Assembly: GCF_017744155.1 (NCBI RefSeq) | Contig: NZ_JAGHQT010000003.1 | Coordinates: forward strand, 1-64,000 | Source: Endozoicomonas sp. G2_1 | GTDB lineage: Bacteria > Pseudomonadota > Gammaproteobacteria > Enterobacterales > Alteromonadaceae | DNA: 64,000 nucleotides | Direction: 5' to 3' | Part shown: positions 9,463 through 39,701 of the stretch, piece after piece | How positions within the stretch are numbered: position 1 is the stretch's first letter | Layout: each line of letters begins with the position of its first letter | Notes under the pieces: generated by a model | Told to the model about the DNA's origin: nothing | The model's database searches: none | Seen by the model: only the letters and a program-made list of their open reading frames with translations | Translations under genes and position numbers: made by a program

Positions 9463-9475
9463 TTGACCATTTTGT

Positions 9476-9505: not shown

Positions 9506-9575
9506 TAGCCGCAAAAGTTGTATTTCATTGTGAAGTCACCGACAATAGCCACTCACTCCTCTTGCCTAGATTACT

Positions 9576-9971: not shown

Positions 9972-10177
9972 TGTTCGCTCTATTACTTTAGGTCATTAAG
10001 CCTAGCTCAAATCTATCTCCATTCCTTGTATAACCTATAACCGGTTTGCCCTTGAGTAGAGGGCAAAATACGGTTGCTGAAACAAGCATTTACATTTCGA
10101 TAATCGAAAAAATTTGTCACTAGTGTGTTGGTGATGTATAACACCATTGTTAGCCTGACTTTTTAGGAGTTTAATTA

Positions 10178-20230: not shown

Positions 20231-20313
20231 TGCACTGCTACTAACGCGCAGTTAACAGAGCGCTAGTTCGCAGTAAGGACTAGCGCCAATCAATAAAGAA
20301 TTAAGGAAAACTT

Positions 20314-21543: not shown

Positions 21544-21552
21544 GGAGTACAA

Positions 21553-22593: not shown

Positions 22594-22610
22594 TTGATTG
22601 GATAGATAAA

Positions 22611-23414
22611 ATGGTGATGTTAACAGCAGAGCAAGTGATAGCACCTGACGTGTACTCAGAAATAATGCGCCGAATCAAAGCTGCGGAACAAGAGCACAAC
22701 GTAAAGGTGCTTTACGCGGTAGAGTCAGGCAGCCGTGCTTGGGGTTTTGCTAGCCCAAATAGCGATTACGATGTGCGCTTTATTTATGCGCACCCCAAAG
22801 ACTACTATCTAACGATAGACATTGAAGACAAGCGCGATGTAATTGAATACCCAATTGTTGATGAAATCGATATTAATGGTTGGGATATTCGCAAAGCATT
22901 AAAACTGTTTTGGAAATCAAATCCCGCGTTTATTGAGTGGTTACAGTCACCAATTGTTTATCTCGACGATGGCTTTTTCGCGCCAACGGCTCGTGATTTA
23001 ATGCCCAGTGTGGCATCGTCTCACAAAGGTATTTATCACTACTTGCACATGGCGCGCGGTAATTTTCGCGAGTACTTGAAAAAAGATGTGGTGCCGTTGA
23101 AAAAATACTTTTACGTGCTCAGGCCGCTGCTGGCAATAATGTGGCTAGAAAAATATGACAAACCAGCTCCGATAGAGTTTGATGTATTGCGTCAACTGGT
23201 TGCTGACAATGAAGCGTTAGATGAAGCTATTTCTGAATTGGTTGCTCGCAAAAAAGTGAGTTTAGAAAAGGAATATGCGCCAGCGGTGCCGATAATCAAT
23301 CAATTTATTGAATCTGAGCTTAGCCGACATCAAGAAAACCCTCCTAGTGCCGGAGACAGAGATGCCGATTTTGAGTTACTAAATCAGTTGTTTAAAAGGG
23401 TTTTGCTGGATTAG
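22611..23414 (+). CDS. Pol-beta-superfamily nucleotidyltransferase, RNA-ligase-associated (RlaP-like)
   Basis: GS-x-RAWGFASPNSDYDVRF NTase motif (GS…DxD); immediately follows rtcA. Confidence 0.55.
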   Translation: MVMLTAEQVIAPDVYSEIMRRIKAAEQEHNVKVLYAVESGSRAWGFASPNSDYDVRFIYAHPKDYYLTIDIEDKRDVIEYPIVDEIDINGWDIRKALKLFWKSNPAFIEWLQSPIVYLDDGFFAPTARDLMPSVASSHKGIYHYLHMARGNFREYLKKDVVPLKKYFYVLRPLLAIMWLEKYDKPAPIEFDVLRQLVADNEALDEAISELVARKKVSLEKEYAPAVPIINQFIESELSRHQENPPSAGDRDADFELLNQLFKRVLLD

Positions 23415-23556
23415 TTTTGATAGCATAAACACATAGTTGAAGGGCAATAACAAATCAACAAACTTGATCTGCGCTAGCCCTTCAACTATAGTCGAGTTAG
23501 TCACAAATCTGTGGCTATTACTTTTAACCATGACAGCCGGCTAGACCGGAAAGTTA

Positions 23557-24000
23557 TTGCGTAAATACTTATTAAATACCCTCCTTGATTTAGAATTTGT
23601 CGAACAAAATCCAACATATCACCCAGAAGGTAATGCGCTGTTTCACAGTTTGCAGGTGTTCCAACTTAGTCTTAAATTCTCCAATGATCCTGAAATATGG
23701 GCTGCAGCATTATTTCATGATATTGGAAAAGCGATCGATGGACCCACTCACGCAGAAATAGGAGCTGAGCTACTTAGTGGCATCTTTAACGAGAATATAT
23801 GTTGGCTAATTCGTCATCATTTGGACTTATTAACCCACCCAGCAAAAACAAAACGAGCTCTAAGAAATAGTTCCAGACTGAAGCAGTTGATTGTATTGCG
23901 TCATCTAGATTTAAATGGTCGCGATCCATATGGTGTGGTTTGTACGCCAGAATTTGCAGTCGACTACATATTACAGCATTTTTCTTCTATTAAAGCTTAA
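23557..24000 (+). CDS. Stand-alone HD phosphohydrolase resembling the HD domain of class II CCA-adding enzymes
   Basis: YHPEGN…H…FHDIGK…HH motifs. Confidence 0.55.
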   Translation: MRKYLLNTLLDLEFVEQNPTYHPEGNALFHSLQVFQLSLKFSNDPEIWAAALFHDIGKAIDGPTHAEIGAELLSGIFNENICWLIRHHLDLLTHPAKTKRALRNSSRLKQLIVLRHLDLNGRDPYGVVCTPEFAVDYILQHFSSIKA

Positions 24001-24027
24001 AACCCGACCTTAAATGGTCCATTTATC

Positions 24028-24639
24028 ATGAACAAACAACACATTAAAACACTAATGATTCAAGAGTGTGCGAAGCTTATGTACTTTGAAGGCGTTAGCC
24101 AGTATTTCGACGCTAAAAGGATAGCGGCTAAGCGCATTTGCAAAAGCAAAAATCAGTTTTTCCCTACTAATGGCGAAATTGTCAATGCGGTACATGAATT
24201 AAGTATGCAGGATCGGAGCTTTGATAGAGCCCATACACTTTTTAGAATGCGAATAAAAGCATTAGAAATTATGGAGCTATTAGACTGTTTTTCTCCCAGA
24301 TTAATTGGGTCTGTTAGTACAGGTAAAATAAAGCGAACTAGCGATATCGACTTGCACGTATTTTGTGATGACATTGAGTTGTTAACTACATTTTTAAACG
24401 ATGAGAAAATTTCTTTTGAGCAAAATGAAGTGCTTATCATGAAGAATAACAAGCCTAGAGTTTATCAACATATTTATATTGTAAACGAGTTCAATATAGA
24501 GCTATCTGTATATCCGTTTAATGAATTGAGGGTTACAAGTAGAAGTAGTACCGATGGTAAACCTATAGTGAGAATGTCAAAAGCTAAACTTGAAAGATTG
24601 ATTGAACAGGAACATTGGCGCGAAATAGTACAAGCTTAG
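24028..24639 (+). CDS. Minimal nucleotidyltransferase (MNT-type pol-beta fold)
   Basis: GSVSTGKIKRTSDIDLHVF (GS…DxD) motif. Confidence 0.55.
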   Translation: MNKQHIKTLMIQECAKLMYFEGVSQYFDAKRIAAKRICKSKNQFFPTNGEIVNAVHELSMQDRSFDRAHTLFRMRIKALEIMELLDCFSPRLIGSVSTGKIKRTSDIDLHVFCDDIELLTTFLNDEKISFEQNEVLIMKNNKPRVYQHIYIVNEFNIELSVYPFNELRVTSRSSTDGKPIVRMSKAKLERLIEQEHWREIVQA

Positions 24640-24712: not shown

Positions 24713-27316
24713 TTATAGCTGACTCAAAATCGTTGGATCTTTAATTTTATTATCTTCTGCGAGTAAAAACGCTTTCGAAAGTACAATCGATAGACCATTG
24801 TCACCTTCAAATGGTAAGAATACATTATTGAGGTTTTTATCTTTGCTCCGACTCGGGACAATACACAGGTAGCGATCATTAGGCATGATTAAAATGTTTC
24901 CGCTGCCAATGTGAATTTTATAAGTGTGTTTTGTACCTTTAACGATCAAAAACTTATTATCAATGTGCGCAACATCTCGCAATTTAAGGCGTGGTAATAG
25001 TTTTTCTAACACGTCTTTCCTAGTTTTTGCCACTTCACTTAAATCACCAAAAGAGTAGGAGTGCCAATAGTCACGGTATGCTGCTCTTCCGTCAGGCCCT
25101 CCATCTTGCCATTGAGGGTCGTTCCCCACACTGGCGACACCTACAAATAGATCAGCGTCTCTCATGATTTCGGAAAACAATAGAGGTGGGACATCAGCGA
25201 GTTCAACGGCTTCACCGGATTGATCACAAAACCTGAGTTGGTCAGTAGCAACATAATACCAAATACCGACATCAGTATATTGGCCGTCTTCATCTATCAA
25301 TTCGTTTATCCAGAATTGGGCGGTGAGCTGGTGTGCCGGTAGATACTTTTGTGCTAGTTCGCCGTCAGCTCCATTATCAAAGGCACCTTGTAGTGTATAT
25401 TTCCAACCTCTAGTTGCAGCTAGAGAGTTGAATTGGTGCTGTTTGATAATATGTGCAGCCATTCTATTGGAATAAATACGAGTATTAATTTCGGCATCCG
25501 TAAGTAAATAAATTTCACGAAAAGCTTGTTTAATCGGCTGTTTAATTCCTAGATAGTCCAGGCGTTCTCGCCATGCTAAAACCTCTTCTGCTTCAGAAAA
25601 TAGCGGATGCCACAGAGTAACTTTAGCATTTGGATCAATATTAACGGCGTTGCCTGATACGTCTTGCCATTGTTCGTTAATGTATAACAGAGGTTTTTCA
25701 TCAAATGACCAAATTAATTTTTGCGCGATAACACTAACTAAGCCGTGCTTTAAATAGTATTGTTCAAAATCTGTAATGGTCCATTCCATAACATCGGTAT
25801 ATATTCGGTCAATGCGATCTTTTTGTGTAGATAGGTTTTGCTTTATTTGTTTGACAGTGGCTCTTGCTTTTTTGAGATTGTCATTAAGTGCTTTATCATT
25901 TTTGACGAAAGCAGGCACTGACTTTTGTTGTACACCATCAGGCTTTAACCAAATTTGCTCTACTTGATTAACGCCTGATACCTTTATTTGTAAACTAAAA
26001 TCATTGAACGGTATGCTAATTTTTCCCTCTATCAGGTTGAAATCAGGGACAGATATTTCCTCGACCTGAGCTGGCTTTATACCAAGTTTTTCTGCCTGTT
26101 GATCTATGTATGTTTGGATCAGTTTTTGGGTACTATTTTGTTTTACTCTGAGCTTTAACCTAGATAAATGACCAATTCCTCCAAGCCCTTTTGATTGAGC
26201 TAAGGTATAAATTCCCGCATTGCCGACTGCTAAAGCAACAGGACCGTGATCAGGTATTTTCTCGAAGCACTTTTCCGTCAGTTTAGCGATATTTTGCACG
26301 CTTTCTTGATCATGAAAGCGACTCATCGACCAAATTAGCCCTTTTAACAACTGATAACAGCCTGACTCTATATATTCATAGTTGTGGTAAACATATTCTT
26401 GGCCATTATAGTTACTGGTTCTTTGCGTAATAATGACCTCTAACTCAACCAACTGCTTGAATAGCTGATTGACTAACTTTTTATATGGTTTAATGCCAAT
26501 TTGGTCGATTAGTTGGCTCGAGGTGGTTAAGAATTTTTTGCTCGGTTTGCCAGCTTTAGCAGTCGACAAGTGACGCAGTAAGCTATTCCAATTGTTATCG
26601 TTTGTCAGGTTACTTGTCTCGAAAGCTTGTCTTGCTATTTGACCAAAGCGACCACTGCTAAACTTGTAAGAAGGAACTTGTTGTTCGCCATTAGCGTTGG
26701 CACTAGTAAGAGCATTTTGGAGTTTTTGAATGGCTTTACCGATATCTGGCCCCCAATAGTAGTTGCCTTCATTGCCGTTTATATGAGGCTTAATTAGTTT
26801 ATTAGCCAAAAGCTCTTCAATATCTTCAGCAATGTGCGTTTGTGGGCCATGTCGTTTTACGTGTTTTTCAATTTGAGTGGCGAAATAACCAAAAGGACCA
26901 TCGTTCAATGCTAGTTTATTTTTGCGGCCTTGGTGATAAAGCAAAGAAAACAAATCGCTAAAACTGTAATCGATTGGAAAATCTATTCTCGTTTTAAGTA
27001 AAGCTTCGATTAATCTTGAGTAAATATAGTTTGCTTGCTTATTGGGGTTGTTGTAGTCACGTGTATCAAGATCATAGCTGTTAATTTTGTTCATCAAAGC
27101 TTCAAGCGCCGCAATTTTTTGTAATGCAGGTAATTTTTTTAGCTGCTGATATTCTTCACAGTCTTTAAAAGGCAAATGATGATAACTATAGAGGTACTCG
27201 GTCGAGTCTATGACTTGTGTTTGTATCGCGTTGAAGTAGTGATCAAATTCAGAAGTTTGTGGCTGTGCACCCGACGTTTTAGCGTTTCTAAGCCTTTGTA
27301 AAATTTTTTCTAGCAT
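24713..27316 (-). CDS. Large (867 aa) hypothetical protein, possibly DUF4132-like
   Basis: No catalytic motifs recognised by eye; co-oriented with upstream 131-aa ORF. Confidence 0.3.
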   Translation of the reverse strand: MLEKILQRLRNAKTSGAQPQTSEFDHYFNAIQTQVIDSTEYLYSYHHLPFKDCEEYQQLKKLPALQKIAALEALMNKINSYDLDTRDYNNPNKQANYIYSRLIEALLKTRIDFPIDYSFSDLFSLLYHQGRKNKLALNDGPFGYFATQIEKHVKRHGPQTHIAEDIEELLANKLIKPHINGNEGNYYWGPDIGKAIQKLQNALTSANANGEQQVPSYKFSSGRFGQIARQAFETSNLTNDNNWNSLLRHLSTAKAGKPSKKFLTTSSQLIDQIGIKPYKKLVNQLFKQLVELEVIITQRTSNYNGQEYVYHNYEYIESGCYQLLKGLIWSMSRFHDQESVQNIAKLTEKCFEKIPDHGPVALAVGNAGIYTLAQSKGLGGIGHLSRLKLRVKQNSTQKLIQTYIDQQAEKLGIKPAQVEEISVPDFNLIEGKISIPFNDFSLQIKVSGVNQVEQIWLKPDGVQQKSVPAFVKNDKALNDNLKKARATVKQIKQNLSTQKDRIDRIYTDVMEWTITDFEQYYLKHGLVSVIAQKLIWSFDEKPLLYINEQWQDVSGNAVNIDPNAKVTLWHPLFSEAEEVLAWRERLDYLGIKQPIKQAFREIYLLTDAEINTRIYSNRMAAHIIKQHQFNSLAATRGWKYTLQGAFDNGADGELAQKYLPAHQLTAQFWINELIDEDGQYTDVGIWYYVATDQLRFCDQSGEAVELADVPPLLFSEIMRDADLFVGVASVGNDPQWQDGGPDGRAAYRDYWHSYSFGDLSEVAKTRKDVLEKLLPRLKLRDVAHIDNKFLIVKGTKHTYKIHIGSGNILIMPNDRYLCIVPSRSKDKNLNNVFLPFEGDNGLSIVLSKAFLLAEDNKIKDPTILSQL

Positions 27317-27326
27317 ATCGGTCTTT

Positions 27327-27722
27327 TTAGCCTCCCACTAGTTGGGTTAGTTTGATAAAACTGATAGAGGTATTCGCGGTTATCTTGATGGTTTGGTCTA
27401 AGCTTTCTGCTTGCATGTCGTCTATGAGAATGAAAAAGCCGTTACTTTCAAATGCGTTAAATGCTATTTCAATTTGTTTTTCAGGATCTACTTGATGTTT
27501 TTTTTTCGGTGAGCCGTTGAGAGTGGTTTCTAGAGTTTTCGGTTTGACCAGAGAATGTCTACTAGATTGCTGCTTTTCATTGTATTGGACGACTTCTTGG
27601 TATACCCGCTCTACAATTAAGTCTTTAACAGTGATTTGGATGCGATCGAACGACAATTCTAATTCTTGATAAACTTGGCCAAAGCCATTTTCATCCTTAA
27701 TTTGTATTTTTGTGATCTGCAA
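27327..27722 (-). CDS. Hypothetical 131-aa protein, upstream partner of the 867-aa protein
   Basis: 10-bp spacing to downstream gene suggests operon. Confidence 0.35.
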   Translation of the reverse strand: MQITKIQIKDENGFGQVYQELELSFDRIQITVKDLIVERVYQEVVQYNEKQQSSRHSLVKPKTLETTLNGSPKKKHQVDPEKQIEIAFNAFESNGFFILIDDMQAESLDQTIKITANTSISFIKLTQLVGG

Positions 27723-27889
27723 GGTAAGTACTCCCTACTTGAATTGATAGTCTTGAAGGACATAAAGTTATCACAGTTAAACCAATAAGACTTCAAAATG
27801 TCTGAGCTATTGTCTTTAGCCAGGTTCATTGCACTATTATTTTTTGTTGTTAGGTTAATTGTTATAAACGCTATGGAGAGGTTTGTATA

Positions 27890-28588
27890 TTGAAACTAGT
27901 ATTACTACCCGGCATGGACGGTACAGGAGAGTTATTTGCTGACTTTGTTAAGTATTATCCAAGCGATTGCGTAGTTATTTCACTACCTCAATCTGGTGCA
28001 CAGGACTATGTATCTTTATCTAAGCGAGTTGCTAAACAGTTACCTGATGGAGACATTGTCTTACTAGCTGAGTCATTTTCCGGTGGCCTTGCGATCGAGC
28101 TTATCAAAAGTGATTTAAACATTTGTACGAGAGTCAAAGGTATCATCTTTGTTGCTAGCTTTCTAAGCAGCCCTAACAAAGTGATGATTAAGCTAGCGCT
28201 GAAGTTGCCCATTCACGTATTAGCTTCTGTATCATGTGGTAGCATTTTACATCAACATTTATTTTTTGATGGTAGAGCTTCGCGTGAGTTACTCTGTCAA
28301 TTTACAAGGCTGGTTAAGTCTGTACCTGAGACAACACTAAAGGCTCGATTAGAGGTCATGTTGCACCAGCGACTACCTCCTATACTATGTGATATACCAA
28401 TACTCTATCTAAGAGCCTCTAAAGATCGACTGGTTAGTGTGAAAAAAGGTAATGAGTTTTCAGCTGCTTTTAGTGACTTAACATACGAAGAATTGAAAGG
28501 GCCGCATTTTTTATTGCAAATAGAACCAAAAAAATCTGCGGAGATAGTTGTTAAATATGTCAATGTACTGAGTTGGAGTGAGGCCTAA
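27890..28588 (+). CDS. Alpha/beta hydrolase fold protein
   Basis: GxSxG nucleophile elbow (AESFSGG). Confidence 0.55.
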   Translation: MKLVLLPGMDGTGELFADFVKYYPSDCVVISLPQSGAQDYVSLSKRVAKQLPDGDIVLLAESFSGGLAIELIKSDLNICTRVKGIIFVASFLSSPNKVMIKLALKLPIHVLASVSCGSILHQHLFFDGRASRELLCQFTRLVKSVPETTLKARLEVMLHQRLPPILCDIPILYLRASKDRLVSVKKGNEFSAAFSDLTYEELKGPHFLLQIEPKKSAEIVVKYVNVLSWSEA

Positions 28589-28665
28589 TAATACGGCTGG
28601 CATTTTTCTTTTTGAGTACCAGCCAAGTTCGATATCACGTCAAACTTGGCTGGCGCGCTCAGACT

Positions 28666-29928
28666 TTACTCAAACGAACCATAGCGATAAAGCTCTTTGC
28701 CTTTTTCGCCAATGATCAACAAGCGATGCGCTTCGCTAAACCAAGGCCATTCCAGCTTATTCATCTGGTCAGTAATAACTTCGTCACTAACGGCAAACTT
28801 GCGATGTCGGTTGTTTGTTCGCAAGGCTTTTTCACTTTGTTGAAAAACAACCATAGTGATTAGCGCGTTGTAGCTTGTGCCTAAATCGCAAATGATTTTT
28901 CTAAAGTCTTTGCGAATATTGGTGGCGTCCCAAACTACATCACGCTTTTGTGCTAGTGCTTGCTTAAGCCTTGTTTTAGCTTGCTGCAATACTTGTCCTC
29001 GATTTTTTTGGCTCAAGCGTTTGCCATTAATTTCACGCCTTATTTCATCGAGCGAAATGACGTCAAAATTACTTAGGTTTTGCTCAATCCAAGTCGATTT
29101 TCCACTGCCACTTATGCCACACATAACGTATAAGTGACTGTATTGTTGGCACGCTTGGTAATGTTTAGCTATTGCTTCTTCAGCTGTGCTAATGTCTCCA
29201 CTGGCAAGTTGAGTGGTTGCATAGCTATTTAAAAACACTTGCTCAGCGGTGTTTTTCTTTACCTGGATTTGTGCCAAGTGAGCTAATGCTGGAGTAGCCA
29301 TTTGCCAGAGCTGATACTCTTCAGCATATAGCCGAAACTGTTCTAAAAAGTCGAGTTGTACTGATAAATCAGGACAAATTCGTCCCTTCATATCTGCAAT
29401 TTCGAGCCAGTAAAGCAGGGCTAAATCAACGTTTAACGACAACTTAAAGTAGTCTTTAAAGTCGCTATTTCTCAATACCAGTAATTTAGGCATTTGATGA
29501 AAACCAACCAAGCCCATAATAGTTAAAACACTTTGTTGATCAAGCGGTAAAGAAATTAAGCGAGTCGCTAAATAGCTAGTGCCAATCTGCTCGTGTTTGG
29601 GAGCAACTAGACGTATTTTTCCCGCAATTTCCTTGCGCCGAGTTGTTAACGGCTTTGCAATATCGTGGAGCAATGCCGCTAGTATCAAGCTTTGGCGAGC
29701 AACTCCCCGAATGTGTTTGGCCTCTGACTCTAGCTGGGTGTAAAGTGCTTGCAAGACCATCTCTGTGTGAATAGCAACATTACCTTCTGCATGCCAATCC
29801 GAGTCTTGTTCGGTATTCTCGAACTGGTGCAGCAAAGGGAAATATTGCCCTAAGTAGTCAACACATTCTGCAAAGTTGGGCGTATGGTTCTCTGCCAAGC
29901 TTTGTAGCCAAGTAGTTAGTTTGTTCAT
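28666..29928 (-). CDS. HD-Pnk bifunctional RNA end-healing enzyme (N-terminal HD 2',3'-phosphoesterase plus C-terminal P-loop 5'-OH polynucleotide kinase)
   Basis: N-terminal H…HD (LHDIAKP); C-terminal Walker A GISGSGKST and kinase-like DEIRRE. Confidence 0.65.
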   Translation of the reverse strand: MNKLTTWLQSLAENHTPNFAECVDYLGQYFPLLHQFENTEQDSDWHAEGNVAIHTEMVLQALYTQLESEAKHIRGVARQSLILAALLHDIAKPLTTRRKEIAGKIRLVAPKHEQIGTSYLATRLISLPLDQQSVLTIMGLVGFHQMPKLLVLRNSDFKDYFKLSLNVDLALLYWLEIADMKGRICPDLSVQLDFLEQFRLYAEEYQLWQMATPALAHLAQIQVKKNTAEQVFLNSYATTQLASGDISTAEEAIAKHYQACQQYSHLYVMCGISGSGKSTWIEQNLSNFDVISLDEIRREINGKRLSQKNRGQVLQQAKTRLKQALAQKRDVVWDATNIRKDFRKIICDLGTSYNALITMVVFQQSEKALRTNNRHRKFAVSDEVITDQMNKLEWPWFSEAHRLLIIGEKGKELYRYGSFE

Positions 29929-29937
29929 GGTAACCTC

Positions 29938-30567
29938 CTAGTTATCAGCGCCTTTTAAACCGTTGGCAATAACCTCAGCGTGCATCCAGTGTTTGTTGGT
30001 GCTGACGTGGTTGGGACGAACCCATTTGGCCACCGATTGAGCAAATTGATCAAAATGAAAACTGTCGGCAAGTCTAACCACGTAACCTTCTTGCTTGCTT
30101 TGATCTAGCGTGAGTTCGCGTATCGTTTTTTCACACCACAAACCAGTATAAAGTTCTTTTGGTGGTTCTAGCCCCAACTTAGCAAACAGCGTTTTACTGG
30201 CTTGCCAATCCAAACACATGTTGTTTTCATTCCATGCTGAAAAAGCGACAAAATAGCTCGGTAGATTGTCATAGGCGATAGAATGCTGTGCATAAAGGTT
30301 CTCACCGCAAATGCGCCAGCCTGCTGGAATGTTATAGCCAATACGAGCTTGCAGTGCTTTAACCCAAGTGCGAGATGGGTGAAAGCGACTGTCGATGGAT
30401 CGCGCGTGAATAAAGTCGGAATAAAGCGTTGTATTTTCGCCATCCATTTTTTCAGTAACGACAACCTTTTTGCCTTCAAAAGGGCTGGCATTGCCTTGGT
30501 GTATGTCGTCTGACGTAGCTCCTGGTGACCAAGGCAAATGTGGGGTACGCGGGTATTTAACTCTCAT
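29938..30567 (-). CDS. Rnl2-like ATP-dependent RNA ligase (adenylyltransferase domain); start likely M at 30567 (track ORF opens at 30681)
   Basis: N-terminus KYPRTPHL resembles T4 Rnl2 KYSSLENH; motif I KMDGEN (KxDGxN type); GGAG RBS before 30567. Confidence 0.65.
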   Translation of the reverse strand: MRVKYPRTPHLPWSPGATSDDIHQGNASPFEGKKVVVTEKMDGENTTLYSDFIHARSIDSRFHPSRTWVKALQARIGYNIPAGWRICGENLYAQHSIAYDNLPSYFVAFSAWNENNMCLDWQASKTLFAKLGLEPPKELYTGLWCEKTIRELTLDQSKQEGYVVRLADSFHFDQFAQSVAKWVRPNHVSTNKHWMHAEVIANGLKGADN

Positions 30568-30758
30568 TTTTGTAACTCCAATTGTAACGACTATTTTTAC
30601 AGCGGGTATGTTCTGCAATGCAGATAATTCGGCGCTGTAAATTTGCGGTGCAACAACACGCTTTGCCAGCGCTGCTGACAAAGTTAGTGTGTGCGGTATT
30701 AATCGCGGAATTACATTGTTCTATCCTCACTTTAGTTATGCCTATCGCAACTACCTAG

Positions 30759-31106
30759 TTACTGTGAGCATGTATTAATCTTCAAACTACCACTGACTGA
30801 TTGAGTAATAAGCTCAACTAGTTCTGGATCCATGTACTGGTACTCGTCGGGAATATCGAGTACCTGAATATTTGTATGATGTAACAGTCGAGTAAATTGC
30901 GCCTTTAATCGACATTTGTGTTTATTTTCCATCACAAAAATAATATCTGCCCATTGTATGTCGCTGGCATTTACCGTTCGTTTTGCTTTTGGGCTAGTAC
31001 CTGCTGAGCGTACGGCAAGAGCAGGGTAGTTTTTCCAGACCTGCTCTGCTGTTGGGCTGCGCCATTTATTGCGACTACAAATAAATAAAACGCGTTGTTT
31101 ACTCAT
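30759..31106 (-). CDS. Low-molecular-weight phosphatase-like protein (LMW-PTP/ArsC fold)
   Basis: P-loop CSRNKWRS (Cx5R-S) and downstream DIPD(EY) general-acid-like motif. Confidence 0.5.
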   Translation of the reverse strand: MSKQRVLFICSRNKWRSPTAEQVWKNYPALAVRSAGTSPKAKRTVNASDIQWADIIFVMENKHKCRLKAQFTRLLHHTNIQVLDIPDEYQYMDPELVELITQSVSGSLKINTCSQ

Positions 31107-31686
31107 TACCAGTATTTTTCTCCATGTCTAAGACTATGCTATGGCAAGGTAGGTTACAGCCATCGTCAAATTCAGCGGCAGCATGAACACCTGTTTCAGC
31201 GATTTGTTGTGCCGTTGCTCCAGACTCATAAAGAGCATGCATAGCACCCAATGCAAAACGTCTGCCTGAGCCGAGCGCCCAAAACTGCTCATACTGATGT
31301 ACTTCGCGATAACTACCAAATTGAAAAATGCCAGAGGAATTAATGATCAAGCCGTCGAGTTGGTTTGACTCAACCGGCTGGTCACTGTCTTCATTGGTTT
31401 CAATAAAATATTCATTTTTCAACTTGTCTTGAATCGCCAATAAGGTTTCGAATATTTGCCACCTCGTTTTTAGGTTAAATAGTTTCGGCTCCGTTTCTAT
31501 TAAGTGCTCGAGGATTTGACTGGTTGCCGACCAGCCAGTCATGCCTATAACACTGTCTTGTACCGGAAAAAGTTTTTTGCGATCGTTAACGTATTTTGCG
31601 TGTACTTTTAACGAGCCAAAATTTAATTGCGTGTCGGCAGAGATACATACTTTGCCATCTTTTATTGCTGCTGTAATAACAGTCAT
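31099..31686 (-). CDS. HslV-like Ntn-hydrolase (proteasome beta-type) without HslU
   Basis: N-terminal Thr after Met (MTVITAAIKDGKVCISADTQ vs HslV TTIVSVRRNGHVVIAGDGQ); GSG motif; 8-bp overlap with downstream phosphatase gene. Confidence 0.5.
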   Translation of the reverse strand: MTVITAAIKDGKVCISADTQLNFGSLKVHAKYVNDRKKLFPVQDSVIGMTGWSATSQILEHLIETEPKLFNLKTRWQIFETLLAIQDKLKNEYFIETNEDSDQPVESNQLDGLIINSSGIFQFGSYREVHQYEQFWALGSGRRFALGAMHALYESGATAQQIAETGVHAAAEFDDGCNLPCHSIVLDMEKNTGNE

Positions 31687-31846
31687 TATATTCTCCTTGA
31701 GTAGCTGTATTATTGTGGTTAGTAGCTACTCTTTTGTTGATTTCTAATGTAGTTTTTCATTTTGCTCTCCACTAGAATTGAATCTAGAAGAGAGCACCTT
31801 TTAGTTGTGAAATTAACATTGTTACTCTCCTTAAATTGGTTATGTA

Positions 31847-32473
31847 CTATTGACTTAACACGAACTTTTCACCTTTAAATATTTTTACTGGATTACCTCG
31901 TTGCAATTGCCAATGTTGTTGCCAGCGCGCTTGTTCTTGTTGACTCATTTTTTGCTGCTGAGCCATTTGCAGTTTTTGAAACAGCAACGCTTTTGCTAAA
32001 CGCTTGTTGGCGTGTTGGCTGCGTTCACTTTCAACGCGCACTGAAACTCCTGAACTAGTGTGAGTGGCTCGCACAGCCGAGTCTGTTGTGTTGACATGTT
32101 GCCCGCCAGCACCAGATGATCGACAAGTTTGGTAAACAATCTCGCGATCAAATGTCATTTCGTCTACTTGGTATACTTGGCCGCTAAAAAACCAGTTTTT
32201 GCGTTTGTGTTGTGGGCGGTATTTACTTTGGCAAACCCAAAGCATTGCTCCTTGCCACGTTTGTGCAAACGCTAAAGCTGTTGCTTTTTGATTGCTTTCT
32301 ATCTGCAGTAAGGCCGACTTAAAACCTAACTTGTTTTCACCCTGACTCGCGTCAATTACCGTGCAATTTAGATCGCTCGTTTTACATTGCTTTTCAATGG
32401 CTTTAACGGCGAGTGCAACCGCTTGGCAGCACTCAACTGGCCCTTGGCCGGCGGAAAATTGAAGTAAAATCAT
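31847..32473 (-). CDS. prfH: Peptide chain release factor homolog PrfH
   Basis: GGQ motif [17 protein letters not shown]; N-terminus [16 protein letters not shown] like E. coli PrfH; 4-bp overlap with upstream rtcB2. Confidence 0.8.
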
Positions 32474-33657
32474 TTGCTACAACTCCCGTTAGTTTTAAAT
32501 GTGAGTACCGGGCGCAACCTCGCGATAATCTCGATTAAACCTGCCGCTGCCATATCTAAAATAATACTTTCACATTTTTTGTAGGCTTGCGGCGCCTCGT
32601 CGTATAACAATTCTTTGTTGCCACAAACGACTCGGCTACCCAATGCTGTTCGGTATAAGTCTTCGCGTTTGTACTTGTGACTTAATCGGCTTTGGCAGTC
32701 GCCGCGCTTCCACTTTCGGCCCGCACCATGAGCAAGAGAACACAAGTTGTGGTTTAGCTCCTGCTGCTGGTTTAATAGCGGTTTCACCAAATAGCTGTAA
32801 TCACCGCGTGAACCCGGAATCACAACATAACCAGCGTCGCTAGGCGTCGCCCCTTTGCGGTGAAGCCAGCCTTTAACACCATCGATTGTTTTGGGTGAAA
32901 CGAGGTTGTGGTTAACATCAAGTACGCAATCACCTTGTGCTTTTATCGCTGCTAAAAAGCGCTTGGCTATAAGTGAACGGTTAAGCTCAGCCCAGCGCAC
33001 CGCATGGTTGTGCTCAGCAATATACTGATTAAATGGCTCACTATTTGTCGCCAAACCATCATGGTTAAATTCACTAATGTGCTTAACCAAAATCGACTGC
33101 CCTAAACCGCGAGATCCCGAGTGCACTAAAAGCTGCAACTGCTTCTTGTTTATGCCCAGTTGATCTAATTGGCTTTGGTCGTAAACTTGGTCAATCGCCT
33201 GAAACTCTGCAAAGTGGTTACCACCACCTATAGTGCCAAGCGCATGATCATAATTGCTGTTAGTAATATTTTTCTCGCGTTTGCCTTGAGCAATGTCATC
33301 AGCCCAGTTGTCGTCAAGTGGCTGTTCAATCGTTTTGAATTGTTTAGCCATTTTGTCTAGATTGACTTTGGCAACTTTGCTCGATGTTTGCCACAACGCC
33401 ATGCCACAACCAATGTCATTACCGACTAAGGCCGGATAAATTTTACTGCGCGTGAAAAATGCCGCACCAATCGGATAACCTCGGCCCGGATGCAAATCAG
33501 GCATACCCGCGACGCGTTCCATACCGGTTAATTCGGCTGTTTTAATTAATTGTTGTATTGCTAGCCCTTCAATCCACGTATTTTTTGAGGCAATAAGGCT
33601 AACTTTGTCAGTAATTTGTTGGACGGATTTGTCCATAACACCAATTCCTTTGTTCAT
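32470..33657 (-). CDS. rtcB2: RtcB-family RNA ligase paralog (RtcB2) paired with PrfH
   Basis: 395 aa with RtcB metal-site motifs (HPGRGYP, GCGM, GGGNHF, HSGSRG, HNH, AHGAGR). Confidence 0.8.
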
Positions 33658-34039
33658 TTGAAAATTTGGTTTTTTAAAACGAATACGGTTTGGCAGATCT
33701 TTTTAGCGTTGAACAAAAACCATAGGCAAACAAACAGGCTCTAGCGACGAAGTGCTAAAGTGAGTTGCTTTAGTTCAGCTTAAAAAGAATTACAGAATGT
33801 TGGCGTAGCTTGTTGCTAGCTAAAAAGATCTGCAAAGGGTAATAATGTATTTTTCATGTTTTTTACTCCTCTACAGTTAGTTGAAAAATGATAGTTGCTC
33901 ACTAAATAAGCGAGCGCATAATAATCAGTTTAATTTGTGAAAGCAAACTTAAAATTAATAAATTGCTAAAATTTCCTATATTTCGACTCATTTTCACCGC
34001 AAAAAAAGTGAACCATATTGGCATTCATTGCGGTGTCTG

Positions 34040-34681
34040 TTACATACACAGATTATTCTGAATTTCTTTTGAGACCGAAAACACTCGCTCTTTCGGCGTC
34101 AGTAATTTTGTTAAATCACCAGCTTCGACAAATTTTCTTTGCTCGGCAACAAAGGGTGAAATATCTTCAATGCGAAAAATGCCATCACCTTTAAACGGCG
34201 CTAAATAGTTGTTTCTCAAGCCTAGCTGAATTGCCTTGCGGTCGAGCTTTTCACCATAGGGGTTATGATCGGGATCCCACTGAAGGCGGACATCAGTAGT
34301 GGCTATTTTTTCTTTCCACTCTTGTTGTGCTAAGCCAAATACGTTAGTTGACGGAAAAGCATTTTGTAGTAAATATTCGAAATATTCAGGTTTGAGAAAT
34401 ATGGCTAATGTGGTCTCTTGACCTTCTTTGGTGCCCCAGCCTGATCGATACATCATCCAGAGAAAGTTGGGTTTAATCCAGCTCATTCTCGAATAACTGA
34501 AGTCACCGCCAAAGTACTGTTGTTTTGCTGCAAAGTTGCCAATACTAGGGCGATAAGCTTGGTAAACTATTACGTAATCTTGGCAACTTTGAGCCATGAT
34601 ATGTTTGCCACTATCCGGCCAAAATGCTTGCTGTTGGTAGTATGGCTCAACCTCAAGCCACGACTCTTGATCAATTTTCAA
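34040..34681 (-). CDS. DUF4291-like protein
   Basis: Family recalled from memory; co-oriented downstream of kptA and NADAR. Confidence 0.35.
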   Translation of the reverse strand: MKIDQESWLEVEPYYQQQAFWPDSGKHIMAQSCQDYVIVYQAYRPSIGNFAAKQQYFGGDFSYSRMSWIKPNFLWMMYRSGWGTKEGQETTLAIFLKPEYFEYLLQNAFPSTNVFGLAQQEWKEKIATTDVRLQWDPDHNPYGEKLDRKAIQLGLRNNYLAPFKGDGIFRIEDISPFVAEQRKFVEAGDLTKLLTPKERVFSVSKEIQNNLCM

Positions 34682-34713
34682 TGTATTATTCCTTTGTTGT
34701 GTTTCTGTTTTGG

Positions 34714-35280
34714 TTAGCTAATGTGCCAGTGAATAAATTCAGTTGGTACATTGTCAACGAGCCAAACATTGTTTGCTGAGCGATAAAAGATAAAACCTTG
34801 CTCATGCATTTTTTTGCTATCGATTTCGAGCACTTTAAGTTTTCCATATCGACTGCCAACCGACGCCGCCACCGTTTTTGATTCGGTAAGGTGAACATGG
34901 TGTCTGTTTCCTTTACTGAGTCCTTGTTCCTGAATACTTGCGCAGAAGCGTTCAGCGGTTCCGTGTAACAGTTTCTCAGGTGGTATAAGTGGTGTTAATG
35001 CCAGATCAACATCGATAGAGTGACCTTGGTTCGCTCTGATTTTTGTTCTGTTTGAGTTTATTGCAAAACGCTGTTTGTCATTCGTTTCAGCGACTAAATC
35101 AACAAGTTCAGCTGTCAGTGGATGTTCAGTAGTTTTATCGACAAGCTCATCGATTGAGGCCCAGCCACAGCTGTCTAGCTTTAAACCAATAGCATCGGGT
35201 TTGTGTCGTAAAACAAAGCTCAAATATTTGGATATTGCGGTGAGCTGCTTTTCTGTGATGCCTACTATTGGGTTAGTCAT
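34714..35280 (-). CDS. kptA: RNA 2'-phosphotransferase KptA/Tpt1
   Basis: LSFVLRHKPDAIGLKLDSCGWASIDELV … HGT … RHHVHL motifs. Confidence 0.8.
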   Translation of the reverse strand: MTNPIVGITEKQLTAISKYLSFVLRHKPDAIGLKLDSCGWASIDELVDKTTEHPLTAELVDLVAETNDKQRFAINSNRTKIRANQGHSIDVDLALTPLIPPEKLLHGTAERFCASIQEQGLSKGNRHHVHLTESKTVAASVGSRYGKLKVLEIDSKKMHEQGFIFYRSANNVWLVDNVPTEFIHWHIS

Positions 35281-35836
35281 TGATCAGTCGCTCTCTTACT
35301 TCCATTAAGGCATAGCCCAACAAATTCAAACCACGCCAGTGTTCAGGTTGCTCTATTTTCGGATTGTCTTGGGCCATGCCTATTCCCCATATCGAATCAA
35401 CAGGGCTCGCCTCAACGATTACTCTGTCATTGGTGTTAATAAGAAAATTGGCAAGCTCATTATGAGCCCTGAATTTAGCCAAATTGGCGTTTATCACAAT
35501 ATCAAACCTATGTTGTTGCCAAACTTGGTCATTGAAGTTGGCGACAGTTCTACCTATGGCTTTTGCTTCGCCGGGCGATTGGGCGGCAAGCACTTTGTTC
35601 GCTGATTTTTTATCATCGAATAACATGGCTTTAGCAAACATCATATAGTGCTCTGCAGTTTGAAAGTGGCAGTTATCGCTGGTAAAAGGAGCGTGATACC
35701 ACTGACTAAAACAGCTTTTGGTGACAACAGGTGCACTACTAGTCATTTTGCTTTGGTGCCCCCAGAAAAAAAGGTATTTAACCGCAACACCATTTGCAAG
35801 TGCTTGCAGCAATTCTTGATTATTTCTTATATTCAT
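35273..35836 (-). CDS. NADAR (YbiA-like, DUF1768) domain protein
   Basis: FFWGH…FSQWY…AEHYMMFAKA…WGIG…LG.ALMEVR pattern; 8-bp overlap with kptA. Confidence 0.7.
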   Translation of the reverse strand: MNIRNNQELLQALANGVAVKYLFFWGHQSKMTSSAPVVTKSCFSQWYHAPFTSDNCHFQTAEHYMMFAKAMLFDDKKSANKVLAAQSPGEAKAIGRTVANFNDQVWQQHRFDIVINANLAKFRAHNELANFLINTNDRVIVEASPVDSIWGIGMAQDNPKIEQPEHWRGLNLLGYALMEVRERLIND

Positions 35837-35872
35837 TTTGTTTTATCTCTCAATCCTTGCGCGCTAATCGCT

Positions 35873-37468
35873 TTATATTTGTTCATTGATTAGCGCTCTA
35901 ATCTCAGCTAGTGTTGTTTCTTTTATCAATTTGCCATCTTGAAAAACAATGTCGAGTAGACCTTCTTTTTCTTCTTGCTCGCTTACGTTGTCGAACAAGG
36001 TGAGCTCACCGTTGACGTTATCGACCTTTAACAACCCTTTGGCTGATTTTTTCTTGGTGTCAGTTTTGGGATCTTTAAAAATAGCGACTCGTTCGCCATT
36101 TTTTACCACGCTAGTTGCTTTAACCGCTGAGCCATGAGTATCGCGAGTAACGTATTGATAGCTGTACGAACCTATGCCAAGTACAACTTTAGAGGCAAAA
36201 CCTTTGTCCATCAGTCTTTGTAGTATTTGGCGTTGGCGTTCTAGGGTGATAGCGTCACCGTAAATAGCACCAATGTGTTCGTCTAGCAATTTAAAGCCTT
36301 TGTCGGTTGTCGTACCGCCAAAAATGTCCCATAAACACTCTATCAACCCTTTTATTTCACATAGCATTAGTGGCTTGTTGCTTTGCTCATTGCTAGCGAA
36401 GTATTCGCCGCACCAACGGTAAGCTTCGTAGCCACTACTAACTGCGTCGAGCTGAGCTTGTTTTTGGTCTGTGAACAGTTCACTGTATTCGGATACTGGT
36501 GATAATTTATATCCGGTTAGTATTTTGACGGGATCGCCTGAATCAGGACGAATCACCAAAGTACCATCGCGAGTCAGTATTTCATTTTTAAGTTGTGGTA
36601 AATATTCGGTCACTAGGGTCCAAAAGTCCCAAGTATCAGAAACCACACTTAAAATGCCGGTTGGTGACTGCTCTCGCATCAAGTATTTAAAAAACTCAAT
36701 TTCACCTTCTAAAATCCATGAACAAGTCACTGAGTGCTCGGTGGCATCAACTGAACAGCCAACTAACTCTTGGTCAACATTAGCGCCATAGTATTTCTCA
36801 GCGAATAATACCGCGGGAATAGTGTCGGTACCGACTAGGCCAGAGGCTAAGTGCCCAAAACCACTCATCGCAGCTGCTTGCTTGCCAAACATCCCCCGAA
36901 AACTGAAGTCATGACCTTGAAAGGGGACAAATTCCATCGGTAATCCTGTTTTTTCAGCGAACTCTTTAAATACCTTGAAATAAGCGACAGAGGTGGTTGC
37001 GCTAGTTTGGATTGGCCAATTTTCACAACTTAAAACCGTTTCGATCATGTTGGTTAGCCACTGAAAACCCGTTTTGGTATTCACTACGGTAATTGGCGGT
37101 ACTGAATAAGGTACAAGAGTACCTTCAGGCAGTGCCTTAATTTTCAGTGGTAGATATCCCAGATCGTGTAAATCTTCTAAATACTTAACATTTACTGGGT
37201 AACCTAGCATGGCACTCATAATGCGTTTGTGCTCAGCAACGGCAATAGTTTTGTCACGACTAAAAAAGTCTGCCCACTCTTCTTGTAAATAACTTTTGAT
37301 GAAGTACTGCAAACCAACAAACGCCACTTTATCGTTATTTTCAACATTACTTAGCTTGCCGTTGCGTGAGGTAAAGTTAGCATAAACCTCGGTTACGTCA
37401 GGATGGTATGCACGACTGTGAAACTCTTTATAAACATCTTTTTGCATGCTTGCTGCGGTAATTGTCAT
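35873..37468 (-). CDS. nadV: Nicotinamide phosphoribosyltransferase NadV (NAMPT); start ATG at 37468 (track ORF opens at TTG 37489)
   Basis: NAMPT-like FQGHDFSFRGM, GTDT motifs; aaggagag RBS before ATG 37468. Confidence 0.75.
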   Translation of the reverse strand: MTITAASMQKDVYKEFHSRAYHPDVTEVYANFTSRNGKLSNVENNDKVAFVGLQYFIKSYLQEEWADFFSRDKTIAVAEHKRIMSAMLGYPVNVKYLEDLHDLGYLPLKIKALPEGTLVPYSVPPITVVNTKTGFQWLTNMIETVLSCENWPIQTSATTSVAYFKVFKEFAEKTGLPMEFVPFQGHDFSFRGMFGKQAAAMSGFGHLASGLVGTDTIPAVLFAEKYYGANVDQELVGCSVDATEHSVTCSWILEGEIEFFKYLMREQSPTGILSVVSDTWDFWTLVTEYLPQLKNEILTRDGTLVIRPDSGDPVKILTGYKLSPVSEYSELFTDQKQAQLDAVSSGYEAYRWCGEYFASNEQSNKPLMLCEIKGLIECLWDIFGGTTTDKGFKLLDEHIGAIYGDAITLERQRQILQRLMDKGFASKVVLGIGSYSYQYVTRDTHGSAVKATSVVKNGERVAIFKDPKTDTKKKSAKGLLKVDNVNGELTLFDNVSEQEEKEGLLDIVFQDGKLIKETTLAEIRALINEQI

Positions 37469-37478
37469 TTTGCTCTCC

Positions 37479-38327
37479 TTACCCTTCAATAATGTTAAGT
37501 GTTACTTTTTGAGTCGTTTGAAACTCGTTGGCTGCTCTAAATGAGTCGGTGGTATATATGTGGTCGATTAAGCCTTCAAATACTTCTAAACCTTGCGAAA
37601 AAATACCGTGGGTAACAAATAGTGATATTTCGTTTGCGCCTTGGGCCTTTAATACTTTGGCTAACTCAATAAAAGTTCTGCCACCGTCACAAATATCGTC
37701 GGCTATGATTAGGTTCTTGCCCGTAACGTTACCAATAATTTCTGTTTTGACGATAGCACCTGTACGCAAGTCTCTTAGTTTCTGCGCCTGTATAACTTCG
37801 CTGCCAAATTGTTCCGCAATTTTTAACGTTTTTTTACTTGCTCCCGCATCAGGTGCAATTAGCGTTAGTTCACCGCTGCGGAGCTTAGTCGTGAGCTCTT
37901 GATTTTTTTTAAGCAACTCTAGTTGAGGGATATTAGTTACTCGGTTTAACAGTGCTGGTGTTACATCGCTGTGAGCATCCCAAATTGTTACTTTGGCAAA
38001 ATTCAGGCTATTGATTATGTTTGCCATAACTGCAGCGCTTAATGCTTCACCCGTGACACAAACACGATCTTGTCGAGCATATGGAAAATAGGGCGCGATT
38101 AATTCAATAGGAACGCTGTCATTGAATAGTCTGTTTAGTGCATCAACGGCCATCATGAGTCGAACAATTTTGCTCGAGTTGGTTAAGCGTTCAATAATTT
38201 CTATTTTTTTGCAGTTCGCCAAATCTTCGAGAGCAAAGCGAATGTGCTCTTCACCACCTGAAAAACTAAAGCTCTCATAGTTAACAATTGTTTTTTTACC
38301 TGCAGAGTTGTGACTAAATATTTTCAT
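37479..38327 (-). CDS. prs: Ribose-phosphate pyrophosphokinase (PRPP synthetase), NadV-associated type
   Basis: PRPP-binding loop NLIIADDICDGGRT; upstream of nadV in same operon. Confidence 0.75.
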   Translation of the reverse strand: MKIFSHNSAGKKTIVNYESFSFSGGEEHIRFALEDLANCKKIEIIERLTNSSKIVRLMMAVDALNRLFNDSVPIELIAPYFPYARQDRVCVTGEALSAAVMANIINSLNFAKVTIWDAHSDVTPALLNRVTNIPQLELLKKNQELTTKLRSGELTLIAPDAGASKKTLKIAEQFGSEVIQAQKLRDLRTGAIVKTEIIGNVTGKNLIIADDICDGGRTFIELAKVLKAQGANEISLFVTHGIFSQGLEVFEGLIDHIYTTDSFRAANEFQTTQKVTLNIIEG

Positions 38328-38345
38328 GATGCTCTCTTTATTGTT

Positions 38346-38504
38346 TGTGTCCCTATGACATTATTTAATTTAGCAGGGTGATAATATTTATGCAATACAA
38401 ATTTGTGTCTTTATGACACTTTCCTGTTTATTGCCATTTTTAGTGGTGTTAACAAGCTGAGCAATTGCAATTTTTCGCATATTTCTATATTGTGTCTTAT
38501 AGAC
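38346..38504. promoter_or_regulatory. Three copies of inverted repeat GTGTC-N5-GACA(C/T) (38346-38361, 38404-38419, 38489-38504) in the prs-nadV / nrtR divergent region; candidate NrtR operators
   Basis: tgtgtccctatgacat, tgtgtctttatgacac, tgtgtcttatagacat read directly. Confidence 0.45.
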
Positions 38505-38522
38505 ATAATTGAGTTGAGCAGC

Positions 38523-39221: not shown

Positions 39222-39231
39222 TGGCTAATTT

Positions 39232-39675: not shown

Positions 39676-39701
39676 CCTGACTTGAGGCAGCGTGATGATG
39701 T

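Follow-up and report, generated by a model that had tools for sequence, protein, structure and literature searches.

Here we describe a minus-strand gene string in Endozoicomonas sp. G2_1, located within the first 64,000 nucleotides (nt) of contig NZ_JAGHQT010000003.1 (hereafter the window). Four co-oriented genes between positions 28666 and 31686, referred to as bph, ptp, lig and HD-Pnk, encode a proteasome-like protein, a small phosphatase, a polynucleotide ligase and an RNA end-healing enzyme. Two further genes, prfH and rtcB2, lie directly 5' of bph on the same strand, extending the string beyond 31686. With moderate confidence, we read the four genes as the downstream two-thirds of a composite translation-apparatus repair locus in which bph and ptp serve rtcB2-prfH. 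The string comprises, from 5' to 3':

32470..33657 (-): rtcB2, PrfH-coupled RNA ligase of the RtcB family, which seals 16S rRNA in the rescue/repair module
31847..32473 (-): prfH, release factor H, carrying a GGQ motif (SGAGGQHVN)
31099..31686 (-): bph, BPH-family proteasome homolog of 195 amino acids (aa), with an AAGGAG ribosome-binding site, 160 nt 3' of prfH
30759..31106 (-): ptp, minimal LMW-PTP-fold CX5R phosphatase of 115 aa, isoelectric point (pI) 9.5
30650..30728 (-): spacer element, a Shine-Dalgarno and ATG-TAA start-stop block followed by a two-tier hairpin
29938..30570 (-): lig, stand-alone ATP-dependent polynucleotide ligase consisting of just a nucleotidyltransferase domain
28666..29928 (-): HD-Pnk, N-terminal HD phosphoesterase and C-terminal P-loop 5'-OH polynucleotide kinase

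All four genes named in a preliminary description of this DNA were present as open reading frames (ORFs) with the tight junctions it gave, namely an 8-nt bph/ptp overlap (31099-31106) and 9 nt between the lig stop and the HD-Pnk start, and its domain calls were borne out by Pfam (HD/AAA_33, RNA_ligase, LMWPc and Proteasome). Upstream, rtcB2 and prfH are adjacent, co-oriented and overlapping by 4 nt, and both exceed curated NCBIfam cut-offs, as expected of an RtcB2-PrfH module (RtcB2: NF007153, 560 bits against 407, and TIGR03073, 539 bits against 271.8, with Pfam RtcB at 250 bits; PrfH: TIGR03072, 259.5 bits against 166.65). RtcB2 orthologs at 68-78% identity are the first gene of every related operon. 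The genes co-occur elsewhere as well: all six stand in this order in L039, an independent metagenome contig whose proteins are 69-80% identical, so the arrangement in the window is not a chance juxtaposition. A site scanner found no minus-strand promoter-like or terminator-like site between prfH and bph. Just before the bph ribosome-binding site, a putative 8-9-bp hairpin (GAGTAGCT...CAGCTACTC; 31699-31731, minus strand) was noted by eye only.

The rtcB2-prfH pair has been described as a two-gene operon, with only a TPR protein, a Pol-beta nucleotidyltransferase, a Zn-ribbon protein and charged-helix proteins recorded as accessory genes (PMC9304027, PMC6514570). The window shares with the Escherichia coli RtcB2-PrfH system (Tian et al. 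2022, PMC9304027; PMC9223846; PMC13166195) the orthologous families, the gene order and the stop/start overlap, together with the GGQ motif and the RtcB catalytic His motif. However, in contrast to the two genes of E. coli, the window and related marine gammaproteobacteria add BPH and a mini LMW-PTP, with two small proteins (sB and sZn, described below) in relatives and lig-HD-Pnk in some. An extension of rtcB2-prfH by BPH, mini LMW-PTP, sB, sZn or lig-HD-Pnk was not reported in the papers searched.

The product of bph had been described as proteasome-beta/HslV-like and lacking an HslU partner. Its proteasome fold stands (PF00227, 30.1 bits; N-terminus MTVITAA, with the nucleophilic Thr at position 2), as does the missing partner, since no AAA+ unfoldase gene adjoins bph in the window. 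The HslV identity was rejected (TIGR03692, 27.8 bits against a cut-off of 157.75; NF003964, 27.6 against 137). By sequence, the protein is instead assigned to the family known as 'Betaproteobacteria proteasome homologue' (BPH; PMC5777263; PDB 5OVS, 5OVT, 5OVU). A BPH family profile matched 5OVU at 243 bits (E value 1.4e-71) and 5OVS at 198 bits (E 1.4e-57), against 39 bits or less for HslV (E ~1e-9), and the window protein is 41% identical end to end to the crystallized Cupriavidus BPH (5OVU; 188 aa, E 3e-48). Residues D18, K38, G51 and G139-S140-G141 (precursor numbering) are invariant among 22 family members, and the catalytic residue set, with equivalents of Thr1, Asp17, Lys37, Gly50 and Ser139, is fully intact. 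Shared with the crystallized protein are also the missing unfoldase neighbor and a long acidic pore loop, EDSDQPVES, where ETNEDSDQPVESNQ aligns with NTKEDEDDPYESSQ of Cm-BPH and E106, S107 and Q109 are invariant or nearly so in the 22-member alignment. BPH is known to form tetradecamers and to bind epoxomicin (PMC5777263). Two features set the window protein apart from published BPH. While every BPH outside Betaproteobacteria was stated to have Ser1 (Fuchs et al. 2018, PMC5777263), the gammaproteobacterial clade linked to rtcB2, including the window protein, carries Thr1, and a second clade, linked to an RtcB1-type ligase and an HNH protein, carries Ser1. Published contexts, moreover, are argG, pyruvate dehydrogenase and Hsp33 operons (PMC5777263), and a later survey found no informative gene contexts for newly described proteasome homologs (PMC8665760), whereas the context here is one of RtcB-type RNA repair operons.

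Gene neighborhoods of BPH were collected by two pattern-based scans, which gave 68 loci, and the window proteins were mapped onto them. In the closest BPH clade (65-98% identity), rtcB2-prfH was found immediately upstream in eight of the 12 loci with enough context. What follows BPH varies: PTP, lig and HD-Pnk in the window and L039; PTP as the last gene in L047 and, with a small ORF between prfH and BPH, in Psychrobium (L040/41); nothing further of the module in L003, which also has a small ORF before BPH; and a 133-aa protein (p133) and a third RtcB (RtcB3) in L037/38 and L048. One further rtcB2-prfH-BPH string (L078) is cut by the contig end. Only 4 nt (L037) or 9 nt (L039) lie between prfH and BPH in the closest-spaced loci, and BPH and PTP overlap by 8-19 nt across loci. 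In several loci of a more distant group of homologs (50-52% identity; L011, L057/58, L062-64), the order is tRNA array, RtcB1-type ligase, HNH protein and BPH, the ligase being 54% identical to the RtcB1 encoded elsewhere in the window. BPH therefore neighbors three RtcB paralog types, which is hard to explain by chance, though few independent events are involved. Conservation of the four-gene cluster around BPH in general was rejected, as tblastn and phmmer detected RtcB in 2 of 36 loci and PTP, lig or HD-Pnk in none; given the rarity of RtcB and the housekeeping synteny of distant-clade loci, BPH is not a general RNA-repair gene. Only one plasmid-borne BPH, on a Ralstonia megaplasmid, was recovered with tblastn.

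Several other features were observed at these loci. The tRNA arrays (up to nine genes; L057 5071-5948, L062 3459-4764, L064 127-371, L011 2104-2316) stand directly 5' of the RtcB1-HNH-BPH string in high-GC gammaproteobacterial contigs. A conserved 129-146-aa protein without a Pfam match lies directly 3' of BPH in L037 (8806-9195) and L048 (5461-5862); in L037 it is followed by the third RtcB type (9188-10309), which is 28-31% identical to RtcB1 and RtcB2. In the metagenome contig L048, prfH is split into two ORFs (3731-4643) and is a probable pseudogene, with BPH and the downstream RtcB retained.

The ptp product gave a Pfam LMWPc match of 34.1 bits, with the alignment restricted to residues 6-39 around the P-loop C10-SRNKW-R16-S17, and C10, N13, R16, S17, D84 and D87 are invariant in 28 homologs. 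Its AlphaFold2 model (predicted local distance difference test, pLDDT, 90.2) has the LMW-PTP fold, and Foldseek matched TT1001, YwlE, Wzb and human LMW-PTP at probability 1.00 (TMq 0.66-0.75). With the low-molecular-weight (LMW) protein tyrosine/arginine phosphatases Wzb, YwlE and TT1001 it shares the Rossmann-like fold, the CX5R(S) P-loop with Asn, a conserved SAG motif and the D-loop Asp. Unlike these proteins of 130-164 aa, it is 30-45 residues shorter, with helix 1 and the variable loop truncated, is only ~20% identical to them, is basic, and is paired with or fused to the novel sB domain. The family as a whole (>4,900 proteins) measures about 109 aa (range 107-116) and has neither the canonical LMW-PTP length (~140-160 aa) nor the variable aromatic loop forming the wall of the phosphotyrosine pocket. 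In contrast to Wzb and YwlE, no BY-kinase adjoins PTP, and the loci examined showed no McsB-type kinase. A thioredoxin-coupled ArsC identity was rejected, as the Cys triad (Cys10, Cys82, Cys89) is absent; only Cys10 is invariant, and conservation does not extend to Cys65 or Cys113 in the window protein.

PTP is a recurrent third gene of rtcB2-prfH in the marine gammaproteobacterial group, with BPH as an optional insert between prfH and PTP and lig-HD-Pnk as an optional appendix. Among the close homologs sampled, it follows rtcB2-prfH in L079/80 and L082, directly so in a Colwellia metagenome-assembled genome and in Pseudoalteromonas obscura, and stands behind sB in C. psychrerythraea. The order rtcB2-prfH-sB-PTP was found in L081, and the same order continued by lig-HD-Pnk in Flocculibacter collagenilyticus (L083) and in L084. 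The preliminary description had the protease and the phosphatase attached to the ligase and HD-Pnk; in related loci, both track rtcB2-prfH instead. BPH, PTP or both follow rtcB2-prfH without lig-HD-Pnk in seven loci (L040, L047, L079, L081, L082, L003 and L037), and conversely lig-HD-Pnk occurs without BPH in the rtcB2-prfH loci L083 and L084. From this gene order we infer that bph and ptp are add-on genes of the rtcB2-prfH transcription unit and that lig-HD-Pnk is a separable second module.

The basic ~70-aa domain or protein sB stands directly before PTP in six loci, including a Pantoea plasmid (coordinates: L083 7785-8000, L084 7779-7997, L081 6001-6216, L042 5782-5991, L085 4772-5017). It carries the motif PEKNWKLMYIRSEKLKRAKQLGIxYP and has no Pfam or PDB match. 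Fusions of sB to PTP (P0144, P0109, P0153, P0179, P0392 and P0393) are 177-188 aa long, and at L081, where sB-PTP lies within the operon, the annotated product is an sB-PTP fusion protein. Searching 1.8 billion cluster representatives returned 76 sB relatives, most of them stand-alone, several fused to LMWPc and one to PP2C. Because sB is thus fused to two unrelated protein-phosphatase folds, a phosphoprotein substrate is tentatively favored for PTP over an RNA end, on one PP2C case. A second small protein, sZn (L040 7757-7975; L003 9741-10004), was observed between prfH and BPH; it contains Cys residues and a very basic tail (...GCxxCFPHGY...QRNWK...) and has no Pfam match. The accessory genes for Zn-ribbon and 'charged helix' proteins mentioned for PrfH operons (PMC6514570) may be counterparts of sB and sZn. 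No remnants of either were found in the 160-nt prfH-bph gap of the window.

The true start of lig is almost certainly the ATG at 30570 (210 aa) rather than the TTG at 30681, because the 100%-identical NCBI 'RNA ligase family protein' (P0210) is 209 aa long; the ptp-lig spacer is accordingly 188 nt and holds the conserved hairpin. Both the KYPRTPHL N-terminus and the KMDGEN motif I of the preliminary description are present in lig (PF09414 RNA_ligase, 106 bits). Its family exceeds 7,900 members. In the window protein, motifs I to V lie at residues 41-185, and K41-M-D-G-E-N, G89-E-N, E161-G-Y-V-V-R and K182-W-V-R are invariant, in keeping with a covalent nucleotidyltransferase. The label Rnl2-type, on the other hand, did not hold: lig is without the signature C-terminal domain that Rnl2 ligases require to seal nicks and has no NCBIfam Rnl2 match, and T4 Rnl2 aligns over its N-terminal domain only. 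In a Foldseek search with the lig model (pLDDT 87), the adenylyltransferase domains of fungal Trl1, Naegleria Rnl5 (NgrRnl), T4 Rnl2 and archaeal Rnl3 matched equally weakly (TM score about 0.5, 12-17% identity), and the lig sequence found no match in the PDB. HD-Pnk combines HD (26.3 bits, residues 52-136) and AAA_33 (83.2 bits, residues 266-393) domains, matches TIGR04075 (bacterial Pnkp kinase region) and contains the motifs LLHDIAKP and GISGSGKST; its kinase half matches the Clostridium thermocellum Pnkp kinase domain (PDB 4GP6) at E 2e-8. In L039 and L083, lig and HD-Pnk overlap by 4-8 nt.

As the preliminary description held, HD-Pnk with a ligase is a known heal-and-seal pair, found in the LIG/HD-Pnk/Tpt1/methyltransferase-HIT cluster of Runella slithyformis (Munir et al. 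2018, PMC6097658). Compared by its published description, that cluster resembles the window in having the ligase immediately 5' of HD-Pnk (10 nt or less), an HD plus P-loop kinase architecture and Tpt1/KptA nearby on the same strand. The window differs in that it is without a methyltransferase-HIT gene, has Tpt1 on the far side of rtcB2-prfH, at a distance of ~4 kb and grouped with DUF4291, NADAR and nicotinamide adenine dinucleotide (NAD) salvage genes, and places the cassette behind a conserved start-stop/hairpin element. By analogy, lig would be the functional counterpart of the LIG partner of HD-Pnk. Runella LIG adenylylates itself and does not seal ordinary 3'-OH/5'-PO4 substrates (PMC6097658).

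That element consists of a start-stop block (30728-30707) and a hairpin (about 30694-30650, minus strand). The block, GAGGATAGAACAATGTAATTCC, is unique in the window, with a chance expectation of 0. The whole element (window 30650-30728, minus strand; L039 8948-9030; L083 about 8406-8490; L084 about 8376-8460) is present in all four loci with both ptp and lig. There, the ~170-200-nt spacer carries the Shine-Dalgarno/ATG-TAA block and, after a further 9-16 nt, a long hairpin; its outer arms are conserved, and its inner stems vary in sequence yet still pair. Fold z-scores range from -2.0 to -5.0, the Flocculibacter copy (L083) is followed by a U-run, some copies having a U-rich tail, and the window hairpin was flagged as terminator-like by the scanner. 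A sigma-54 promoter in the spacer was considered by eye and rejected for unsuitable spacing. The presence of the hairpin in every ptp-lig spacer is a lead, from four sequences, that rtcB2-prfH-bph-ptp and lig-HD-Pnk are separate units, with read-through possibly regulated; the element could be a translation-sensing attenuator or a terminator.

Homology shows rtcB2-prfH to be a ribosome rescue and resealing pair and lig-HD-Pnk to be an ATP-dependent heal-and-seal pair. In the former, a characterized module, PrfH frees the peptide from a ribosome with 16S rRNA cut in the decoding center and RtcB2 reseals the 30S RNA; the latter, the Runella-type cassette, heals breaks with 2',3'-cyclic-phosphate and 5'-OH ends and then seals them with ATP. 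In the mechanism we propose, BPH would form, like its crystallized relatives, an unfoldase-independent double-ring Thr-peptidase with an acidic pore, clearing basic, unfolded polypeptides that accompany ribotoxin damage. Such substrates are suggested by the acidity of BPH (calculated pI 5.0) alongside the basic products of the other operon genes (PrfH, RtcB2, PTP, sZn and HNH, 9.1-10.0), together with the acidic cavity and the missing unfoldase. Candidates would be an imported RNase toxin domain, truncated nascent chains released by PrfH and strongly basic rescue factors. The toxin domain is preferred, if tentatively, because RtcB rather than PrfH is the common neighbor of BPH; released nascent chains are only slightly less likely, and other or unrelated substrates make up the rest. 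PTP is predicted to be a catalytically competent CX5R enzyme, recruited in relatives by sB, and its most likely target would be a protein, belonging to the damaged ribosome or translation machinery, and not an RNA end. We give a phosphoprotein on damaged translation machinery somewhat less than an even chance of being the substrate and consider an RNA-end phosphate decidedly unlikely. The full scheme, in which BPH would be a dedicated protease arm against RtcB-repairable damage, the sB-targeted PTP a hitherto unrecognized third catalytic component of RtcB2-PrfH rescue that undoes a phosphorylation on damaged translation machinery, and the start-stop/hairpin element a device tying expression of lig-HD-Pnk, as an ATP-dependent back-up pathway, to ribosome status, is in our view unlikely in its entirety.

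Set against this service of bph and ptp to rtcB2-prfH are several observations that weaken it. The link of BPH and PTP to the module has gene neighborhood as its basis and is clade-limited, that of BPH to rtcB2-prfH being restricted to one group of marine gammaproteobacteria; sampling leaned to the nearest homologs, so that many loci are orthologous and independent events number ~3-5. RtcB was nearby in none of 20 loci of the most distant BPH band, distant BPH genes sit in housekeeping synteny (gpmI-envC-ctpA-yibQ or fumarylacetoacetase-purF), and close homologs are solitary in four loci (L001, L002, L004 and L050). PTP is likewise solitary in Amphritea, Vibrio aerogenes, Shewanella psychrophila, Pantoea, Ruminococcus, Bernardetia and Pseudomonas, as are its more distant members on plasmids and megaplasmids. 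In the window itself, prfH and bph are spaced by 160 nt with neither sB nor sZn there. The sB-PP2C fusion (P0346) is a single cluster representative with a Pfam score of 26.1 against a cut-off of 24. Finally, published BPH did not proteolyze model substrates in vitro, and neither an unfoldase nor a substrate has been reported for it (PMC5777263).

Some of this would suit bph and ptp being mere passengers, that is, general stress or housekeeping genes in an accretion hot spot beside rtcB2-prfH and without a specific tie to repair. Most members of both families occur elsewhere, and BPH has been described in varied, 'stress-linked' settings (argG, pyruvate dehydrogenase, Hsp33; PMC5777263). The genes also lie in a 22-kb mosaic island of many modules, and none of the four proteins matches a PADLOC defense family. 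A passenger would, however, hardly keep the fixed order and the tight or overlapping junctions seen across loci with differing flanks, adjoin three RtcB paralog types as BPH does, or lie inside the operon as a product annotated as an sB-PTP fusion (L081), and we regard this explanation as unlikely.

PTP might alternatively condition RNA ends for RtcB2, removing a blocking 5'- or 2'-phosphate, for example after HD-Pnk, with sB as a tether to rRNA. RtcB requires a 5'-OH, PTP directly follows rtcB2-prfH, and a basic PTP with a very basic sB fits RNA or ribosome binding; the truncated recognition loops (109-115 aa) also speak against a classical phosphotyrosine pocket. To our knowledge, though, no enzyme of the LMW-PTP fold is known to act on nucleic acids, one sB fusion partner is PP2C, whose fold is that of protein Ser/Thr phosphatases, and the PTP family is common in genomes and loci without RtcB2. 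We consider end conditioning quite improbable.

The preliminary description had proposed that BPH and PTP are auxiliary to heal-and-seal by lig and HD-Pnk, with PTP stripping 2'- or 3'-phosphates from RNA ends. In its favor, there are Cys-phosphatases with a different fold that work on RNA 5' ends. PTP is basic (pI about 9), the genes are adjacent on one strand in the window and L039, PTP is directly 5' of lig in L083 and L084, and an unusual end chemistry is possible in view of the inactive Runella ligase on plain 3'-OH/5'-PO4 ends (PMC6097658). This role is nonetheless very improbable, as PTP (L040, L047, L079, L081, L082) and BPH (L003, L037, L040, L047) follow rtcB2-prfH without lig-HD-Pnk, the conserved hairpin parts PTP from lig in four of four loci with both, HD-Pnk already supplies the activity through its own 2',3'-phosphoesterase domain, loss of a 3'-phosphate would counter RtcB, and sB is also fused to a PP2C protein phosphatase.

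Under the preferred reading, in which bph and ptp serve rtcB2-prfH, a rescue factor would be genetically coupled to a compartmentalized protease. Tagging by transfer-messenger RNA (tmRNA) with ClpXP and eukaryotic ribosome-associated quality control (RQC) with the proteasome also couple proteolysis to ribosome rescue. The likeness is an analogy only; in contrast to these systems, the window is without a tagging system or unfoldase, and gene order is what suggests the coupling. The component families and both core modules (rtcB2-prfH and lig-HD-Pnk) are known. Within the literature searched, three features appear to be new, though an earlier mention is possible: the attachment of BPH, a minimal LMW-PTP and sB to rtcB2-prfH, the association of BPH with RtcB ligases, and the serial arrangement in which lig-HD-Pnk stands behind a conserved hairpin. 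The preliminary description was thus right to call the arrangement uncharacterized, since no proteasome homolog or LMW-PTP was tied to such systems in that literature.

Within the proteasome family, BPH has counted as an orphan since 2008, with crystal structures and no known substrate, partner or informative context (PMC5777263, PMC8665760). Its position beside three kinds of RtcB and directly after PrfH offers a first context that suggests a function and makes degradation targets testable; a role as protease arm, if true, would be the first physiological role for BPH. A conserved PTP with a basic targeting domain, together with a peptidase, suggests further steps in ribosome repair beyond the two-protein RtcB2-PrfH system, and the two also suggest that the damage being reversed includes phosphorylation of the translation machinery. 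The locus also places two mutually incompatible chemistries, that of RtcB (3'-P/5'-OH) and that of an ATP-dependent ligase (3'-OH/5'-P), in series behind one putatively regulatory hairpin.

The four genes belong to a ~22-kb RNA repair island. Its second repair operon (16815-24639), which is under RtcR control, comprises rtcR (minus strand) and, on the plus strand, Band_7, RtcB1, RtcA, RlaP, an HD protein and a Pol-beta-like nucleotidyltransferase; the rtcR/Band_7-RtcB1-RtcA operon also adjoins rtcB2-prfH in Psychrobium (L040) and Flocculibacter (L083). In the leader between the divergent rtcR and Band_7-rtcB1-rtcA (18668-18882, plus strand), ARAGORN called three tRNA-like elements (Ser-aga, undetermined and Thr-agt), two of which reach the Rfam tRNA cut-off, and a sub-threshold match to YrlA (Y-RNA-like) was seen. 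The two RNA repair operons are separated by genes for an 867-aa DUF4132/DUF7737 protein and a 131-aa protein without a family match (24713-27722, minus strand). Upstream of rtcB2 lie:

34040..34681 (-): DUF4291 protein (PF14124, 198 bits), 32 nt 3' of kptA
34714..35280 (-): kptA/Tpt1 RNA 2'-phosphotransferase (Pfam PTS_2-RNA, 156 bits; NF002014, 230 bits)
35273..38327 (-): NADAR protein, nicotinamide phosphoribosyltransferase and phosphoribosyl pyrophosphate (PRPP) synthetase, NAD salvage, upstream of kptA
38403-39221 (+): nrtR (NUDIX and NrtR_WHD), divergent from the NAD-salvage genes

The NAD-salvage genes were recognized by Pfam (NADAR, 185 bits; NAPRTase/NAMPT_N; Pribosyl_synth). Rfam contained no RNA family matching within 27000-40000, and PADLOC gave no match for the four proteins, rtcB2, prfH, kptA or DUF4291. 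The NADAR protein upstream of kptA (35273-35836, minus strand) matches the PADLOC candidate defense family PDC-M42C (E 1.7e-43).

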